Shown: positions 2,934 to 11,413, counted from the stretch's first letter. The stretch: DNA of 64,000 nucleotides from Alphaproteobacteria bacterium (GCA_965246875.1 CBDFFU010000006.1:353938-417937); one strand, 5' to 3'. Numbers and translations are program-made. Notes: a model not told the origin generated them from the sequence alone.

Positions 2934-5591
2934 ATGAGCGATACGAAAAACACCATTGACGGCAAAAAACTGACCCTGTCTGGCAATACATTGTCTGGCA
3001 ACACGTTGTCGGCCAAGCCTGCGGGCACCTTGTCAGTCAAACGGCCAGACAGTGCAGCACCGGCGCTAACAGGCGGCGGAGCGGCCTCGTCGAATGCCGG
3101 CCGCGTCAAGCAAAGCTTTTCTGGTGGTGTCACAAAATCAGTTGCTGTCGAAGTCAAACGCCGCCGCGTGTTGAAACCAGGTGAGATAGCCGGCACGCCG
3201 ACACCGGTTGCAGCCGCTCCCGTCACTGCATCGCCTGCGGCTATGCGCCAGACACCAACTGCTGGGGCCAATGTTGATAGCCGGGTCGATAATCGCCGTC
3301 TGGAAGCCTTAAAAAACATCAATAACGAACCGCCGAAATCACGCTTTGCGTTTACAGTGGCCGAAGGTCAGGCGCAAGCCAAAGCCGAACGGGAAGCCGC
3401 CAGCATTAAGCAAGCCGAAGCCGAATTGAAACGTCCATTGACGCCGGAAGAATTGCGCGCGCGCGAACTGGCGGAAATGGAAGCGATCGAAAACGATGAA
3501 AAAGATCGTAAAAATGCTGAGAATCAGCGTCTCGACGCCAACAACCGTCCGGCCACCACAGCGGGTGCGACACGTCCGACAGGCAGTGCGGCAGGCTTGG
3601 TTGGCCGTGCGCCATTGCCGGGCCGTCGTGAGGATGATGAAGCGGCTGCCCGTGCCAGCGGCAAGAGTACGCGTGGCCGCGGTGACGACCGTCGCCGTGA
3701 TGGTCGGATTACCTTAACACAAGCCTTGAGCGGCGAGCCGGAAATTGAACGCGGCCGTTCCGTTGCGTCATTCAAACGGGCGCGCGAAAAAGAAAAACGC
3801 CACATGATGATGGATGTGCGCGAAAAAATCGTACGCGAAGTTATCTTGCCAGAATTTATCACCGTTGGTGATTTAGCGAACCGGATGGCCGAACGCTCCG
3901 GCGACGTTATCAAGGCGCTCATGAAAATGGGCTTGATGGTCACCGTCACGCAATCGATCGATGCCGATACCGCTGAACTGGTGGCTAATGAACTGGGACA
4001 TATCGTCAAACGTGTGTCGGAGTCGTCTGTCGAAGAAAATCTGCAAGGCATCGCGGACGGCGTCGAGACATTGATCGCGCGTCCACCGGTTGTCACCATC
4101 ATGGGTCACGTCGATCACGGGAAAACCTCGTTGCTCGATGCTATTCGCCAAACCGATGTTGTCGCCGGTGAAGCGGGCGGTATTACGCAACATATTGGCG
4201 CGTACCAGATCACGACACCGTCGCATCAGAAAATCACATTCATCGATACACCGGGTCATGCCGCGTTTTCGGAAATGCGTGCCCGTGGCGCGAATACAAC
4301 CGACATCGTGGTGTTGGTGGTCGCTGCCAATGACGGCATCATGCCGCAAACGATTGAAGCGATCAGCCATGCCAAAGCCGCCAACGTGCCGATTATCGTG
4401 GCCATTAACAAGATGGACTTGCCGGACGCTAATCCGAAAAAGATCAAAGAGATGCTGTTGAGCTATGAAATCGTTGTCGAAGAGATGGGTGGCGAGGTTA
4501 TGGCTATCGAAGTCTCGGCGAAGAAACGCATGAATCTCGACAAACTCGAAGAAGCCATTTTATTACAAGCCGAAGTGCTGGAACTCAAAGCCAACCCGAA
4601 CCGTGATGCGGTGGGCGTGGTTCTGGAATCCCGCATGGAGCAAGGCCGCGGATCGGTGGCTACCGTTCTCGTACAAAAAGGAACGCTCAAAGTCGGCGAT
4701 ATTTTTGTTACCGGGATGGAGCAGGGCCGTGTTCGTGCCATGGCGAATGACAAAGATAAACGCATCAAGGAAGCGGGTCCGGGGATGCCGGTCGAAGTGG
4801 TCGGTTTGAACGGCACACCAAACGCTGGCGATGATTTTGTCGTCGTTGAAGATGATGCCAAAGCACGCGACATTGCCGAATACCGCATCCGCAAAAAACG
4901 CGAAGCGGAGAATGCCAAGTCCGGCAAATCGACCGTCGAAGAAATGCTGCAGCAGATCAAAGACGGCGAGAAACGCGAACTGGCCGTTATCATTAAAGCC
5001 GACGTGCATGGGTCGGTTGAGGCCATCAACGCGGCCTTACACAAACTGGTTGAAGACAACGCCGAAGTGGGCTTGCGCACCTTGCATATGGGCGTTGGTG
5101 CCATCAATGAATCCGACGTGTCCTTGGCTCGTGCAACCAAAGCCTTGATCATCGGCTTTAACGTGCGTGCCAATCCGCAAGCGCGCGAAGGCATTCGCCG
5201 TGAGAATATCGACACGCGTTATTACAGCGTCATCTATAACGCCATCGATGATGTCAAAGCGTTATTGACCGGCCTGTTGTCACCGACGCAAAAAGAAACC
5301 ATCAGCGGTTACGCAGAAATTCGCCAGGTCTTCGACCTCACGAAATTCGGCAAGATTGCCGGCTGTATGGTCACTGAAGGCAAAGTCAGACGTGGTTCCA
5401 AAGTCCGCTTGCTGCGCGACAGTGTTGTCGTTCACGACGGCACGCTTAAGTCGCTCAAACGCGGCAAAGACGATGCCCGAGACGTGGCATCAGGCTTCGA
5501 GTGCGGGATGGCCTTTGACAATTTCGACGACATGCGCGCTGGTGATATTGTTGAAGCGTTCGAGATCGAAGAGACAGCGGCGATTTTGTAA
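2934..5591 (+). CDS. infB: Translation initiation factor IF-2
   Basis: [25 protein letters not shown] GTPase motifs; operon position. Confidence 0.98.
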
Positions 5592-5648
5592 TATCAGCTT
5601 GCTGCAACATTGAAGCCTGCGTTGTTTAACAAGCTAGCATTTTGTATG

Positions 5649-5689
5649 TTGACATATTAATAGACGTGCGCTAATGTTTGTTTAAACAA
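5649..5689 (+). promoter_or_regulatory. Sigma70-type promoter with downstream palindrome
   Basis: TTGACA(5649-5654)-17 nt-TAATGT(5672-5677), then the perfect palindrome TTGTTTAAACAA (5678-5689) and a GAGG RBS. Confidence 0.55.
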
Positions 5690-5699
5690 GAGGTTAGTC

Positions 5700-6311
5700 A
5701 TGTATAGAACAGTCGATATTGCTTATAATGAAGCTGAACAGATTCGCGCAGGCCGAACTCTGGCAAGTCAGATTTTGTGGCCCAAACAAAGCACACGTGA
5801 CATTAAGAAAAAAAGGACACAGTTATTACAAGAGATAGCGAAACTGGACGAGCTTCTAGATGTTGTGAATGATCACAAGTTTGAAGACGTCACGCTAAAA
5901 TATCAAACACAAGCGCTCGACATTGGGGAAACAGCATCAGACCTAGAACCTTCTGCTGAAACTGTAGCGATTGCAGATCTGGTCACAGACTCATATTTGA
6001 AATATGTGACAGCCGAAAAAGACAAGACCGGTCATTTTAGAATCACGGCATTTAATCAATATGATGAAGCATTGCCTGCGCATTATTTTAACGCTGAAAC
6101 CAGCATGCCTATTGCCGAAAAGTCTGCCTTAGAGATTTTGCACACAGTCGAAAACGCTCGTTTGCTCGCAATATCTGGAATGAGGCCTGAAAGCAAAGTG
6201 GGCTTGCCCGGTTACGAAGCCGACAAGCACTTTGACAGACGTCGTTATGAATTGGGAATTTATGAAACACAATCTCTCGTTCAACTGCCAAATGGAACGT
6301 TAAGACTATAA
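5700..6311 (+). CDS. Hypothetical protein (orphan, 203 aa)
   Basis: Long ORF with RBS and own promoter; no recognisable motif; more AT-rich than infB. Confidence 0.75.
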   Translation: MYRTVDIAYNEAEQIRAGRTLASQILWPKQSTRDIKKKRTQLLQEIAKLDELLDVVNDHKFEDVTLKYQTQALDIGETASDLEPSAETVAIADLVTDSYLKYVTAEKDKTGHFRITAFNQYDEALPAHYFNAETSMPIAEKSALEILHTVENARLLAISGMRPESKVGLPGYEADKHFDRRRYELGIYETQSLVQLPNGTLRL

Positions 6312-6570
6312 GTGTGCCGAAGAAGTTCTCTTAATATAATGTATTATATAATGTATAAGTTGGCTGCTAATTCCCGTAATAGTTAAGAAGGCGATCGTCT
6401 GGCATCGTGAAACCAATGCTGCTTCAAAACCCACCAATCAGAAATTCGGCTTTGTGCAAACGCATAAAGAGATTAACGTCACATGGCTGGATAGGTCTGT
6501 GGAAAACAGACTCTACTATGCATTAACGTTGTAAACGCGTAAACTTTGCCTGTTCACAGCCCGATCAATA

Positions 6571-7461
6571 ATGATCTACGTTTATTTGGATTATGTAAAA
6601 TTGAATAAGATTATCATTTTTGCGTTGATAAGTTTTGGCCTTTCTTTGACAGCATGCCATCAGGACAAGGCTGGTCAAACGCAACGCGCTGACACGTATG
6701 ACCATGTGATGGCAAGCGGTAAAATCCGGTGCGGCTATCTGGAATGGCCGCCCGTCTTGCAAAAAGACATCAATACAAAACAATTCTCAGGCGTTGGTGT
6801 CGATATCATGAAGGAAATTGCAAACCGTCTGAAACTGAGCTTATCATGGGATGAAGAGGTTGGGCCGGCAACGGCGGCGGAAAGCGTGAAATCAGGACGC
6901 GTCGATATGATGTGTATGCCGCTTATCATTACGATGGCCCGTGTGCGTGTCGTCGATTTTTCGGAACCTGTCATGTTCAGCCGTTTTTCACCATGGGTCA
7001 AAACGAATTCAGCTGTTACAGATACGACGAACATGAATGATGAACGCTATCGGTTTGTCTACATTGATGGCACAGGTGCCGCCAGCTTAACCGAGAGGTT
7101 CTTGCCAAAAACGCAACATATCACATTGGTTGAAAACACGCCGACGTCTGATTTGTTTTTAAGCGTCATGACGGGGAAGGCGGACGCGGTCTACACCGAT
7201 ACCAGCACGATCTTCCCGTTTGAGCAAAATCAGCCAGGTCAGATGCGGCCTGTGTTAAATTCTGATATGACAATGAGAATGCCTTGGGCGTTCATGGTGG
7301 CACAAGATAACTACCGCTTTGTACATATGATCAACCTTGTGTTGCAGGATATGCACTATGATGGAACGCTTGAACGTATCCTGCAAAAGAATAAAGCCGA
7401 GAGTTATTTTACCATGACGGTGCAACAACCGCCGCAACACAAAAATTGGCAAGAACAGTGA
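6571..7461 (+). CDS. Amino-acid-type (family 3) solute-binding lipoprotein
   Basis: Lipobox LTAC; IRCGYLEWPP, SGVGVDI..EIA..L, GRVD, GKADA, DGTL..I..K pattern; no permease or ATPase nearby; start could be TTG 6601. Confidence 0.85.
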   Translation: MIYVYLDYVKLNKIIIFALISFGLSLTACHQDKAGQTQRADTYDHVMASGKIRCGYLEWPPVLQKDINTKQFSGVGVDIMKEIANRLKLSLSWDEEVGPATAAESVKSGRVDMMCMPLIITMARVRVVDFSEPVMFSRFSPWVKTNSAVTDTTNMNDERYRFVYIDGTGAASLTERFLPKTQHITLVENTPTSDLFLSVMTGKADAVYTDTSTIFPFEQNQPGQMRPVLNSDMTMRMPWAFMVAQDNYRFVHMINLVLQDMHYDGTLERILQKNKAESYFTMTVQQPPQHKNWQEQ

Positions 7462-8075
7462 CCAATATTCATCTCGTCACCGGCAATCAAAAGAAATTTG
7501 CCTATATCACCAGCAACATTGTGTTGCCAGCTGATACACAATTTATCATGACGCCGATCGATACGGTTGAAATTCAGGCACCCAATCTGGCCGATGTCAG
7601 CCGGCACAAAGCAGTGACAGCATGGGAGCAATTGCAGCAGCCATTGTTGGCGCATGACAGTGGCATGGCGATTCCGGAATTGAATGGTTATCCAGGGCCT
7701 TACACAAAAGATTTGATGAAAACGGTTGGCGTTGACCGGCTATTTAATTTGTTTGCAGCATTTGCCGACCGTTCGGTCGTGTTACAGGATTGCCTGACTT
7801 ATATTGACCAAACAGGCATTCATCAATTTTCCGGTAATACAGCGGACATCTATTGTTTTGCTAAGCGCAAGGGCCAAAGTGTGCATAGCGATATGCCGCT
7901 TAATTCACTTATTGCTTTTTGTAACCAGCCAGATGTGCCGTTGTCCGAGATCGAAAACTGGATGGATGTTTATCAACAGCATGTCAGGCAAAAACAATTA
8001 TTGACGTGCTGGCAGAAATTTTCGGATTTTATCGCTGGGCAACAGTATGCAGAAAACCAACGAGGTGCCGCATGA
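7458..8075 (+). CDS. Ham1/ITPase-fold (non-canonical NTP pyrophosphatase-like) protein, paralog 1
   Basis: LVTGNQKK, EIQ, HDSG, LNGYPGPYTK motifs; GTG start overlaps upstream TGA; no FGYDP or SHR motif. Confidence 0.85.
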   Translation: MTNIHLVTGNQKKFAYITSNIVLPADTQFIMTPIDTVEIQAPNLADVSRHKAVTAWEQLQQPLLAHDSGMAIPELNGYPGPYTKDLMKTVGVDRLFNLFAAFADRSVVLQDCLTYIDQTGIHQFSGNTADIYCFAKRKGQSVHSDMPLNSLIAFCNQPDVPLSEIENWMDVYQQHVRQKQLLTCWQKFSDFIAGQQYAENQRGAA

Positions 8076-8695
8076 CAAAACTGATTTTCGCGACGTCGAA
8101 TACGGGACGCTTTATGGCGATGCAGCATGAACTGGAATTGGCTGGTTTAACACACATCAAACTTGAACAGAAAAAATTGGATTTGATCGAAATTCAATCG
8201 ATGGATTTAGCTGCCATTTCGTTACACAAGGCGCATCAAGCGTATGAGATATTGCAAGCGCCAGTGCTTGTGATGGACGGCGGATTTTACATGGACGGTT
8301 TGAATGGTTTTCCGGGTAGTTACACCCACGATATGCTGGATACGGTTGGTGTTGAGACCATGGGAAAAATCGCCAGTGTTCTGGAGAATAAAAATTGCAG
8401 TTTTCGCAGTGTCGCGACCTTTATCGCTGGACCCGATGACTATGCGCAGTTTTACGACACAACGGGCGATGTGTTTATCTTGTCTGATACGGTGTGGCCA
8501 CACGATCATCCGAAACAATGGTCGCCTTTATGGCGCATGATCGTGCCGGCGAAGTATGGTTATATCAAACCACTGGCCGCACTTAATGATAATGAGATGG
8601 ATGTATTTTTGCAGCAGCGCCGCATTTTTGTCGGTACGCCAGCAATGAAGCAAGTTGTTGAATACCTGCAAACCAATCAAAGATTGGCAGCTTGA
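8072..8695 (+). CDS. Ham1/ITPase-fold protein, paralog 2
   Basis: FATSNTGR, EIQ, MDGGF, LNGFPGSYT; ATGA overlap with paralog 1; 207 aa. Confidence 0.85.
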   Translation: MTKLIFATSNTGRFMAMQHELELAGLTHIKLEQKKLDLIEIQSMDLAAISLHKAHQAYEILQAPVLVMDGGFYMDGLNGFPGSYTHDMLDTVGVETMGKIASVLENKNCSFRSVATFIAGPDDYAQFYDTTGDVFILSDTVWPHDHPKQWSPLWRMIVPAKYGYIKPLAALNDNEMDVFLQQRRIFVGTPAMKQVVEYLQTNQRLAA

Positions 8696-8696
8696 T

Positions 8697-9320
8697 ATGA
8701 CCAAACTGATTTTTGCGACATCGAATAACGGCAAGTTTTTGTGGCTGCAGCGCGAGTTGCAGATGGCGGGGCTGGATCATATCCAGGCCGAACAAAAACC
8801 GATGGAGTTGACCGAAATTCAGTCGATCGATATTGCTGCCATTTCCTTGTTCAAAGCGCAGCAAGCCTATGCCCAATTGCAATCTCCAGTCATCGTGCAT
8901 GATGGCGGGTTTTATATTGATGGCCTCAATGGTTTTCCGGCCGCCTATACGCGCGATATGATTGATACCATAGGTGTTGAAACGATTGGCCGGATCATTT
9001 CGGTGCTGGACAATAAAAACTGCCAGTTCCGCAATGTTGTCACCTTGATGATGGGTCCTGACGGTTACCAGCAGTTTTTTGATACGACCGGCGATATTTT
9101 CACACTGACAGACAATGTATGGCCACATGATCATCCAAAACAATGGTCAGCTTTGTGGCGCGTCCTGGTTCCAAGCAAGTTCGGCTATATCAAAACATTG
9201 GCCGAATTTTCAGACAGTGAACTTGACGACTATGTCGAAAAACGTCGTGCCATTGATAGTGCATCTGCATTACAGGATTGCGTCGCTTATATGAAACAAC
9301 AGAATAAACTGGCAGCTTAA
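8697..9320 (+). CDS. Ham1/ITPase-fold protein, paralog 3
   Basis: FATSNNGK, EIQ, HDGGF, LNGFPAAYT; 207 aa, colinear with paralog 2. Confidence 0.85.
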   Translation: MTKLIFATSNNGKFLWLQRELQMAGLDHIQAEQKPMELTEIQSIDIAAISLFKAQQAYAQLQSPVIVHDGGFYIDGLNGFPAAYTRDMIDTIGVETIGRIISVLDNKNCQFRNVVTLMMGPDGYQQFFDTTGDIFTLTDNVWPHDHPKQWSALWRVLVPSKFGYIKTLAEFSDSELDDYVEKRRAIDSASALQDCVAYMKQQNKLAA

Positions 9321-9322
9321 TC

Positions 9323-9802
9323 ATGACGGATGTTTACCGGCTTGACCCTGATGACATTGCGAAACAATTTGTGCTGGGCTTTGCCTTTAGTTCCGATGGC
9401 CGCCAGATCGTTTTGATCGAAAAAGATCATCCTGCCTCACAAGCTGGTAAACTCAACGGCTTGGGTGGCAAAGTCAAAACAGGTGACGCGGCACCCATTG
9501 ATGCGGTGTGCCGGGAATGCGACGAGGAGGCGGGGGTCAGCAGCACTGCGGCGGACTGGCATCAATACACAATCTTGAATGGTGATTTTGGCCAGGTGAT
9601 TGTGTTTTATGCGTTCGATGACAAATTTCTGGCCGCCAGCCGGAAAACCGGTCAAGAAATTAAAGTGATGGCTGTCACTGATCCAGCCATCAAAGACCGA
9701 TCGGTTTTGAATGTTTACGATCTGATTCAACAGGCCTTGGCGGAAAAATACGGTGATACAGAGCATTTGCCTTTAAAATCGCCGCAGCCGGCACTAGGAT
9801 AA
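9323..9802 (+). CDS. Nudix hydrolase
   Basis: Variant Nudix box GGKVKTGDAAPIDAVCRECDEEAGV; starts 2 nt after paralog 3. Confidence 0.85.
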   Translation: MTDVYRLDPDDIAKQFVLGFAFSSDGRQIVLIEKDHPASQAGKLNGLGGKVKTGDAAPIDAVCRECDEEAGVSSTAADWHQYTILNGDFGQVIVFYAFDDKFLAASRKTGQEIKVMAVTDPAIKDRSVLNVYDLIQQALAEKYGDTEHLPLKSPQPALG

Positions 9803-9817
9803 CGGCGGAGATACAGT

Positions 9818-10189
9818 ATGGCCCAAACGAAAAAACCACCGACCCAGCGGCAATTGCGCGTGGGCGAAGCGATCCGTCACATTCTGGCGCGTTGCATGAT
9901 CCGTGATGAGACCGGGCATCCAACCTTATCCGGCCAGTCGATCACCGTGACCGAGGTTGAGGTTGGTGCCGATATGCGTCACGCCACCGCCTATGTGACC
10001 CCCCTTGGTGGTGGTGAGATCAAAAACGATGTGCTGGCAGCGTTGAATGAAGTCGCGCCACATTTCAGCCACCTGGTGGCACAAGGCCTGACCATGAAAT
10101 ATTCACCGCGCGTGCGTTTCACGTATGACGAACGTTTCGATTATGCCGATAAAATCAACAAACTGTTGATCAACGCTGATAAGAAATAA
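9818..10189 (+). CDS. rbfA: Ribosome-binding factor A
   Basis: QRQLRVGEAIRH, ITVTEV...DMRHATAYV, KYSPRVRF..D. Confidence 0.95.
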   Translation: MAQTKKPPTQRQLRVGEAIRHILARCMIRDETGHPTLSGQSITVTEVEVGADMRHATAYVTPLGGGEIKNDVLAALNEVAPHFSHLVAQGLTMKYSPRVRFTYDERFDYADKINKLLINADKK

Positions 10190-10194
10190 CGAGC

Positions 10195-10620
10195 GTGCAT
10201 TATTACATTGAACCCGAGATTGCAGGGGAATTGGGTGAACACACCGTGCTTGATACGTCTGTGCATCCGCCGCGTGTCAGTCATCTGCACTACCAGCTGG
10301 ATGGTTTATCGGGCGACGACATCCTGGAAACCTTTCCATGTTTTATTGTCACGAAACGGCTGAAACGCTTTATCGAAGGCGGCGCCTATTCGGGTGCCAC
10401 GTTTTCCGGCGTTGAAGTCAGTAAGTCTCTAGACTTCGCCGAGCGACATCCCAAGATGATTTTGCCTGAATTTTACTGGCTTCAACCGCATGGCCGAGCT
10501 GGCGTGGATGACTTTGGCCTTGCAGATGATGCGCGTTTGGTGATTTCTGCGCAAATGGTTCACGCACTGCGCAACCAGTTTCAAATTAAAGGAGCGGATC
10601 TGCACAAATATGAGGATTGA
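10195..10620 (+). CDS. Conserved hypothetical protein (EPE.AG.LG...HPP...GDD.LE.FPCFIVT type)
   Basis: 141 aa ORF 5 nt after rbfA; motif-rich but function not recognised. Confidence 0.7.
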   Translation: MHYYIEPEIAGELGEHTVLDTSVHPPRVSHLHYQLDGLSGDDILETFPCFIVTKRLKRFIEGGAYSGATFSGVEVSKSLDFAERHPKMILPEFYWLQPHGRAGVDDFGLADDARLVISAQMVHALRNQFQIKGADLHKYED

Positions 10621-10645
10621 GTGATAAACTCTTCTGTTGGTAAAT

Positions 10646-11413
10646 CTATTCCCCAACCAATTCCTGATACGCTTCTGTATCGCTGACCTGGGCCAGAATT
10701 TGGTCGAACGTTTCACCGGACGGCACGGCGGCGATCATGTTGGCTTTGAGCAGGGCAAATTTTTTCATGATGTCTTGATCGATCTGAGCGTAAAGCGGGC
10801 TTTGTGGGTCGGTCATCATGGCCAGGGTTTGCGCCGGGGTTAGTTGTTCATTTTTAGACCGGTACTGCCGCTCTGCGCTGATCGCGTCGTAAATATCGCA
10901 CACTTGCATCAACCGGAAGTGCATCGGCAGATCACCGCCGCCCAGGCCGTGATAGCCTTTGCCATCGGGACGTTCATGATGGTAATAGGCGACTTGTTCC
11001 GCCAGTTCGATCAAAGGGTGTGTGATGCCCGATTTGTCGATACGCGCGGCGCCGTAATCGGTGTGTTTTTTGATTTCGGCAAATTCGTGCGGTTCCAAAC
11101 GGCCCGGTTTTTCCAAAATGTCCAACGGCACGTCCAGCTTGCCGATATCATGCAATTCGGCCGCGAATTTCAGGTTGCGCGCGATGTTATCGCTCAGGCC
11201 CACAAAGCGGGAAAATTCATAGACGTCGTTCGCCACGCGCATGGCGTGAAAATAGGTCGGGCTGCCGACACCTGGCGGCCGAGGCGGGATGGATGGCATG
11301 GCATAGAGGCGTTCCATCTCACGCTGATAGAACCGCATCACCACCGTGTAATGCAGATCATCAGGGCCAAAGGTAAAGTCCAGCAGAGCGTGATCAAAAA
11401 GCGTTTTTATCAT
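10646..11413 (-). CDS. HD-GYP domain protein (putative cyclic dinucleotide phosphodiesterase)
   Basis: H..RVA, LHDIGK, HHERPDGKGYH, DIYDA...R.Y motifs. Confidence 0.9.
   Translation of the reverse strand: MIKTLFDHALLDFTFGPDDLHYTVVMRFYQREMERLYAMPSIPPRPPGVGSPTYFHAMRVANDVYEFSRFVGLSDNIARNLKFAAELHDIGKLDVPLDILEKPGRLEPHEFAEIKKHTDYGAARIDKSGITHPLIELAEQVAYYHHERPDGKGYHGLGGGDLPMHFRLMQVCDIYDAISAERQYRSKNEQLTPAQTLAMMTDPQSPLYAQIDQDIMKKFALLKANMIAAVPSGETFDQILAQVSDTEAYQELVGE

Follow-up and report, generated by a model that had tools for sequence, protein, structure and literature searches.

The RdgB/ITPA (Ham1) pyrophosphatases of nucleotide-pool house-cleaning are usually regarded as single-copy enzymes, defined by a pocket for inosine and xanthosine triphosphates (ITP and XTP). 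Their SHR motif has been tied to substrate binding and specificity, according to the available part of one report (PMC6640186). Maf enzymes, which have a related fold, prefer m5UTP, pseudo-UTP, m5CTP and m7GTP in the available text of another (PMC3899018). In the defensive HAM1 proteins, such as KomB of the Kongming anti-phage system, the catalytic Asp is invariably replaced by His, the purine-binding residues are kept and there is tight linkage to the SIR2 protein KomC, as far as the available portion of that report goes (10.1101/2024.12.20.629578). Here we describe a locus with three divergent Ham1-fold proteins, which we call HamA, HamB and HamC, in 64,000 nucleotides of DNA from an uncultured alphaproteobacterium with a small genome (Alphaproteobacteria bacterium, GCA_965246875.1 CBDFFU010000006.1:353938-417937; this whole stretch is referred to as the window). 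The three genes lie between infB and rbfA, together with genes for a Nudix hydrolase, a solute-binding protein (SBP) that is probably a lipoprotein, and an orphan open reading frame (ORF). The Ham proteins keep the catalytic residues of the family, have lost both of the motifs that mark the ITP/XTP pocket, and are additional to a canonical RdgB encoded elsewhere in the same genome. We consider it on balance probable, judging from the sequences, that the Ham proteins and the Nudix protein are independent, additional house-cleaning pyrophosphatases for nucleoside triphosphates, (d)NTPs, with a specificity other than ITP, and that the SBP and the orphan ORF are passengers.

All three Ham proteins match the Pfam family Ham1p_like (PF01725), and three neighboring matches with E values of about 1e-13 are far beyond chance. 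In each protein, however, the Pfam profile is covered only over the first 129-137 of its 186 positions. The NCBIfam scores of the three proteins, 55.7-79.7 bits, lie under the curated RdgB/XTPase cut-offs of 145-203 bits; for the RdgB equivalog TIGR00042 they are 55.7, 62.1 and 60.4 bits for HamA, HamB and HamC, and the cut-off of 145.35 is not reached. The nearest solved protein by sequence, MJ0226, is also matched in its N-terminal half only (E 6.3e-27; similarity over ~130 residues). Within that half the Ham proteins resemble RdgB, ITPA and other Ham1 proteins. Residues T8, N10, K13, E40, K53 and D69 (HamC numbering), which make up the phosphate, metal and catalytic set (TxN, Lys, Glu, Lys, Asp), are kept in HamA, HamB and HamC, with the catalytic Asp in the contexts HDGG, MDGG and HDSG, and the alignment further shows EIQ and LNG(F/Y)P..Y to be common to all three. 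Unlike RdgB and ITPA, neither HamA nor HamB nor HamC has the FGYDP or the SHR motif in the alignment, and the C-terminal half is too divergent for a sequence match in Pfam or the PDB. HamB and HamC, which are 61% identical, alone carry VWPHDHPKQWS(P/A)LW; HamA has MPLNxxxAF at the place expected for FGYDP, in common with a protein (P0042) to which it is related in the tree described below. We refer to Ham1 proteins with WSxLW as WS-type.

The AlphaFold2 models cover HamA and HamC and have predicted local-distance (pLDDT) scores of 95.2 and 92.8, respectively; the fold of HamB rests on its identity to HamC. In Foldseek comparisons, the models superpose over their full length on MJ0226 (1b78), with template-modeling (TM) scores of 0.78 for HamC and 0.85 for HamA. 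They also match human ITPA (2i5d), PH1917 (1v7r) and KomB, and the TM scores to 1b78, 2i5d and 1v7r range over 0.7-0.85. Because these confident models superpose at full length on MJ0226, ITPA, PH1917 and KomB, the Ham proteins are predicted to be complete ITPase folds in which the C-terminal, base-binding half has been rebuilt. Foldseek matches to the Maf proteins YhdE and YceF are weaker (TM about 0.4), in keeping with a distantly related fold, and no sequence relationship was detected between the Ham proteins and Maf, which is a different family.

The canonical RdgB of the source genome scores 169.2 bits over profile positions 1-184, and its gene lies some 32 kb upstream of the window. Every one of the ten family genomes encodes a full-length canonical RdgB (148-197 bits), and in six of them an extra non-canonical Ham1 protein is present alongside it. 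Because canonical RdgB coexists with them in this way, the WS-type proteins are not a replacement for RdgB. The same holds farther away: three of five distant genomes with WS-type proteins also have a clearly higher-scoring, full-length Ham1 of the canonical type, and canonical RdgB coexists with WS-type Ham1 in the genomes G151 and G153, which are taken up again below.

The relationships among these proteins were examined in a quick maximum-likelihood tree of 71 rows (LG+G4; all support values are from SH-aLRT; the root was placed on the RdgB of the source genome), which was restricted to representatives of 175-235 amino acids (aa) up to P0079, together with a small selection of other rows and of trimmed domains from fusions. 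A branch with support of 99 separates the Ham proteins from the canonical RdgB rows. HamB, HamC and a protein from a genome of the same genus (G001) form a clade without settled inner order (99), nested in a ten-row clade of "infB-rbfA" proteins (98), and HamA is sister to P0042 elsewhere in the subfamily (47-48% identity, 100). From this placement, HamB and HamC are recent duplicates in a narrow clade and HamA has a separate origin on a different branch. No HamA-type protein was found in the 150 other genomes of the order or, by a scan with HamA and P0042, in the genome_contigs collection, and a single-protein scan of genome_contigs gave no relatives. An earlier note on this DNA, made from the sequence alone, had named the Ham1, Nudix and SBP_bac_3 domains, had listed the kept and missing motifs, including the WPHDHPKQWS motif in the second and third paralogs, and had set the Ham proteins apart from ordinary RdgB; Pfam search, alignment and tree, respectively, agree with it. 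It had also suggested looking for a separate rdgB next to rph/hemW. The separate gene exists, and its neighbors are histidine-phosphatase and M20 peptidase genes instead.

To explore the wider distribution, 1.84 billion representatives were searched with a clade profile, which returned 4723 proteins at E <= 1e-3, 2108 at E <= 1e-10, 78 at E <= 1e-30 and five below 1e-57. Canonical Ham1 proteins, which have the N-terminal half in common with the clade, are surely among those counted at the looser thresholds. A motif survey of the 150 best representatives of this search plus 31 further proteins found a motif of the FG(F/Y)DP type in only 1 of the 181 and SHR in 3. In the 164 near-full-length proteins that could be aligned, T8, N10, K13, E40, K53 and D69 are conserved at 93-100%, W150 at 80%, S151 at 75%, L153 at 71%, W154 at 62% and P159 at 85%, figures that are somewhat inflated since the rows were chosen by a profile that contains the motif. 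On this alignment, the Ham proteins belong to a large Ham1 subfamily in which WSxLW usually stands in place of FGYDP. The subfamily is apparently uncharacterized: our literature search returned no paper that describes a Ham1 subfamily without FGYDP/SHR, a fusion of Ham1 with QueA, or a Ham1 gene within the infB-rbfA operon. To judge from the available part of the report, the 154,151-protein HAM1 tree published with the defensive proteins may already delimit a WS-type clade (10.1101/2024.12.20.629578). In the databases, WS-type proteins bear the automatic annotation of XTP/dITP diphosphatases, which is probably wrong.

Ten long proteins of the subfamily were scanned for additional domains. Two join a Nudix domain to Ham1, one joins DUF5662 to Ham1, one has Ham1 with weak ankyrin repeats, four contain Ham1 alone, and the remaining two (P0103 and P0171, about 590 aa) combine, in one chain, a class I methyltransferase with two Ham1 domains, the first canonical-looking and the second WS-type. 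The presence of two unlike Ham1 domains per chain is a hint of heterodimer-like pairing. Fusions of Ham1 to QueA, about 560 aa in length, occur in metagenome-assembled genomes (MAGs) of Actinomycetota (for example, L015:5989-7671, plus strand, and L018). The QueA domain of the fusion (PF02547, E 7e-85) is the sole QueA match in G151 and G153, and no Tgt match was found in these two genomes, for which completeness is not reported; the fusion is therefore not evidently part of the tRNA-queuosine pathway and may represent a non-tRNA use of QueA chemistry. A third genome, G152, yielded the same outcome for QueA and Ham1, and nothing said here depends on it. The neighbors of the fusion encode an ASCH protein, a BpsA_C-like methyltransferase and an AAA_17 P-loop kinase-type protein. 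Over 15 loci of the broad subfamily, with 76 neighboring ORFs, there was no recurrent partner and nothing defence-like. A Clostridia MAG (G154, the genome of L019) has six Ham1 matches, two of which are adjacent, contain in-frame stops and are perhaps the remains of one broken copy; its WS-type Ham1 gene is closely preceded by a YjjX/NTPase_I-T gene. In a family genome (G005, L039:859-2958), a further non-canonical Ham1-like gene is closely flanked by a thymidylate-kinase-like gene (PF02223) on one side and an FkbM-type methyltransferase gene (PF05050) on the other.

The interval between infB and rbfA could be read in eight of the ten family genomes, those in which rbfA was found; G007 and G009, which are 85% and 62% complete, respectively, gave no rbfA. 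The infB protein of the window served as phmmer query for finding infB beside Ham1-like genes in the relatives. The same-genus genome G001 has the order infB-Ham-Nudix-rbfA, with a Ham protein 62% identical to HamC, and G008 has the same order with 51% identity. In G002 the order is infB-Ham-rbfA-truB without a Nudix gene (36% identity to HamC), and the slot of G005 holds a Nudix gene alone. An alpha/beta hydrolase gene takes the place in G004 (L061:1835-2674, minus strand), and infB directly adjoins rbfA in G003 and G006. Among the eight slots, the full set is seen only in the source genome. Two short metagenome contigs add an infB gene followed by a Ham gene (55%) and a Ham gene followed by a Nudix gene (53%). 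Since its contents differ among the eight genomes and Ham and Nudix each occur without the other, the junction is a variable slot that tolerates insertions within a core translation operon. The linkage that does recur is that of Ham1 with Nudix, in G001, in G008 and on the metagenome contig L052.

The Nudix protein of the window has only four relatives, at 38-50% identity, in a search of 5.8 billion proteins, which points to a small, fast-evolving family. The family motif LIxKxRPxWQAGKLNGxGGK...REFxEEAGV is conserved. The relatives carry a canonical Nudix box; in the window copy REx2EE and GV are kept, Asp replaces the first Glu, and the spacer has one additional residue. The best PDB matches of the family profile are MutT (4v14, E 3.9e-9), proteins of the NUDT1/MTH1 type, E. 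coli MutT and the CTP pyrophosphohydrolase NudG (2rrk), and for this reason we regard the protein as a putative NTP pyrophosphohydrolase of the MutT-like type. It shares REx2EE with MutT, MTH1 and NudG and differs from MutT in having its own motif (LIxKxRPxWQAGKLNGxGGK) and in scoring far under the MutT equivalog cut-off (TIGR00586, 22.8 bits vs 97.9). Nudix genes are expanded in the small genomes (1.3-2.2 Mb) of this family, with 23 matches to PF00293 in the source genome (2.18 Mb), 21 in G001 and 9-13 in other family members, as against 2-4 in the families f4-f6 of the order. The Nudix domains that are fused to Ham1 in P0111 and P0135 match the window protein at E values of 0.03 and 1.6 and are not close relatives of it; these fusions therefore indicate only a generic association of Ham1 with Nudix.

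The SBP has a SBP_bac_3 domain (PF00497, 68.9 bits), and its signal peptide and lipobox (LTAC) were read from the translation, not by a predictor. In NCBIfam it has sub-threshold matches to amino-acid-binding proteins only. Its family has at least 15 matches in the source genome, the best non-self match at 41% identity, and is likewise expanded in 26 of 151 genomes of the order, sometimes as tandem arrays; examples of such copies are at G000:C3:1204381-1206914, in the source genome, and at G145:C1:2034382-2040303. The seven related infB-rbfA slots that were examined all lack it. Given its many paralogs in the genome and its absence from the related slots, the SBP is probably a passenger. Its junction with HamA, a GTGA overlap at 7458-7461 if HamA starts at GTG 7458, leaves room for co-expression of the two in the source genome. 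None of the ORFs in 5592-9817 encodes a permease or an ATPase, a negative that applies to this interval and does not extend to partners encoded elsewhere. A profile of the nucleotide transporter TLC (PF03219) had no match, and its control had none in any genome either. The orphan ORF had no match in Pfam, NCBIfam, PADLOC or PHROGs and no relative in the 150 other genomes of the order, and an Atlas search gave no usable match.

These results are consistent with a slot at the infB-rbfA junction that would have gathered accessory genes of nucleotide house-cleaning. HamA, HamB and HamC would be active pyrophosphatases of the ITPase fold that convert NTPs to the monophosphate (NMP) and PPi, and their rebuilt base pocket would accept a substrate other than ITP and XTP, which are covered by the canonical RdgB. 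The Nudix protein would act in parallel, as an independent clean-up enzyme of the MutT type. HamB and HamC may have arisen by tandem duplication around the level of the genus, and HamA derives from another branch of the subfamily. The orphan ORF and the gene of the SBP lipoprotein would have entered the slot as passengers, and promoters farther upstream probably drive the slot genes together with rbfA. The earlier note had likewise proposed an action on a nucleotide other than ITP or XTP. This part of its proposal looks reasonable, because the catalytic set is intact, the base-specificity motifs are replaced and the Ham1-Nudix linkage recurs. Several points weigh against the account that we favor. 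Three paralogs kept in a 2.2-Mb genome exceed what simple redundancy would lead one to expect, and the rebuilt pocket could equally mean that nucleotide binding was lost or that the ligand is no nucleotide. The Nudix-Ham1 fusions suggest a closer functional tie than that of two independent enzymes, and the tight overlaps, that of SBP and HamA included, resemble translational coupling, which speaks for a joint function of some sort. Co-transcription is unsupported by scans for promoter-like sites (12, vs 8.2 +/- 2.8 by chance) and terminator-like sites (6, vs 5.2 +/- 2.1), both at chance level.

Other explanations deserve to be weighed against this one. The WS-type proteins might be Maf-like clean-up enzymes for the modified nucleotides of RNA turnover, tied to the translation apparatus, where they would hydrolyze modified-purine or 7-deazapurine triphosphates and bar their re-use in RNA or by the translation GTPases. 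In favor of this are the position of the clade in an infB-rbfA(-truB) operon in the source genome, G001, G002 and G008, and beside infB on a metagenome contig, as well as the fusions of the subfamily to QueA and methyltransferase domains. Maf paralogs with differing specificities for modified nucleotides offer a possible functional analogy, going by the available text on their preferences (PMC3899018). In its widest form the idea would make the WSxLW proteins widespread pyrophosphatases whose pocket is lined with Trp and takes modified purine or 7-deazapurine nucleotides, and which are repeatedly recruited beside, or fused to, translation and tRNA-modification machinery, and the paralogs of one genome would serve three substrates, possibly as heterodimers. 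The slot, however, is empty or filled by an unrelated alpha/beta hydrolase in some relatives, so that the position may reflect tolerance of insertions and not function; no partner from translation or RNA modification recurs at the loci of the broad subfamily; and the genomes with the QueA fusion have no Tgt match. Both the specific and the wide form of this explanation therefore appear to us possible and rather doubtful. It is also conceivable that the genes act on nucleotide economy or regulation, by trimming NTP pools or signaling nucleotides (alarmone-like compounds, or GTP analogues that act on IF2) or by salvaging NMP in a reduced genome. Some Nudix enzymes hydrolyze (p)ppGpp, the slot lies beside the gene of the GTPase IF2, and these small genomes are rich in Nudix genes. 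Against it stand the variability of the slot and the absence of a riboswitch or other known RNA element from 5400-10400 (0 Rfam matches at E <= 1), and we consider it quite unlikely.

The earlier note had favored a coupled five-gene system, in which an external ligand would be captured or sensed by the SBP, and that ligand, or a nucleotide derived from it, would be processed by the Ham1-like and Nudix proteins in one pathway. The packing on which this was based is real: direct reading confirmed the coordinates and all of the junctions, which besides the SBP-HamA overlap comprise an ATGA overlap of HamA and HamB (8072-8075) and gaps of 1 nt between HamB and HamC and 2 nt between HamC and Nudix. 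Moreover, HamA and the SBP are both unique to the slot of the source genome and could have arrived together. The system as such did not hold up. The SBP is missing from all seven related slots and has many paralogs, some of which form tandem arrays in related genomes; the slot of G002 holds Ham by itself and that of G005 Nudix by itself; HamA has an origin different from that of HamB and HamC; and the linkage expected to be conserved is so only for Ham1 and Nudix. The nearest named families of the SBP bind amino acids, at sub-threshold scores, no permease or ATPase gene accompanies it, and a periplasmic lipoprotein has no evident substrate in common with cytoplasmic Ham and Nudix proteins. A coupled system is in our judgment unlikely. 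The note had also drawn an analogy to KomB, whereby the Ham proteins would sense a nucleotide signal in a Kongming-like or other anti-phage module. KomB shares the Ham1 fold with them and, like them, is a non-housekeeping Ham1 paralog, and its structures are among the fold matches (8zsg, TM 0.74-0.85); the cassette is mildly GC-poor, and a gene with a PHROGs match lies just past rbfA. Whereas KomB has lost the catalytic Asp and kept the purine pocket, the Ham proteins show the opposite: the Asp is kept in all three, with no His in its place, and the purine-binding positions of FGYDP and SHR are replaced. No gene for a SIR2 protein (KomC) or a deaminase (KomA) was found among the eight ORFs scanned in 5700-11413, neither the Ham proteins nor the SBP nor the orphan ORF had a PADLOC match, and the clade lies in a housekeeping operon in several genera. 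All three of the features that define the analogy fail, Kongming-type sensing was accordingly rejected, and an anti-phage role of any kind seems very improbable.

If the Ham proteins and the Nudix protein are house-cleaning enzymes as we propose, a set of Ham1-fold proteins with the catalytic machinery and another conserved pocket motif, present beside RdgB, would imply at least one unassigned class of substrates in nucleotide-pool sanitation. With three paralogs and a partner Nudix protein, the locus would be a compact panel for assigning specificity, and it documents an insertion-tolerant slot within a core translation operon.

The features of the locus are collected in Table 1. The interval between infB and rbfA measures 4.2 kb and holds six ORFs on the plus strand.

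Table 1. Coordinates of the ORFs in and around the infB-rbfA slot, counted from the first letter of the window
Feature	Coordinates	Strand	Remarks
infB (IF2)	2934-5591	+	885-aa ORF; upstream border of the slot; GC 0.55
Orphan ORF, 203 aa	5700-6311	+	No family recognized; open to doubt whether a real gene
SBP_bac_3 protein, probable lipoprotein	6571-7461	+	PF00497, E 4.8e-19; alternative plausible true start TTG 6601
HamA, ITPase-fold	7458-8075	+	PF01725, E 3.8e-13; alternative start TTG 7446
HamB, ITPase-fold	8072-8695	+	PF01725, E 5.8e-13; carries WPHDHPKQWSPLW
HamC, ITPase-fold	8697-9320	+	PF01725, E 1.3e-13; carries WPHDHPKQWSALW
MutT-like Nudix hydrolase (putative)	9323-9802	+	PF00293, E 3.6e-6, 27.5 bits (cut-off 21.1)
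rbfA	9818-10189	+	123-aa ORF; downstream border of the slot; GC 0.535; PF02033 confirmed in relatives
141-aa protein	10195-10620	+	phrog_32682, E 1.9e-41 (function unknown); weak Imm11 match; directly 3' of rbfA
HD_5/HD-domain protein	10646-11413	-	Beyond the phrog_32682 gene

The guanine-plus-cytosine (GC) content is 0.456-0.463 in the SBP and Ham genes, 0.50 in the Nudix gene and 0.425 in the orphan ORF (0.373 at third codon positions). With a mean of 0.505 for the window (standard deviation 0.032, 1-kb windows), the cassette is mildly GC-poor. Folding of the spacer 6312-6600 equals that of shuffled sequences (z = 0.04). One contig of the data set X1 covers the stretch without any difference and is probably its source, and X2, which belongs to the same study, contains identical fragments. 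A putative joint of 5548 to 9835, with a shorter side of 24 letters and many mismatches, was attributed to the infB-rbfA junction of another organism and was not used. The Nudix and rbfA genes are separated by 15 nt that contain GGAGA. In the window truB does not directly follow rbfA, its place being taken by the phrog_32682 gene, and after the HD-domain gene comes a gene that, named from its translation and not by family search, we take to be glutamyl-tRNA-synthetase-like.

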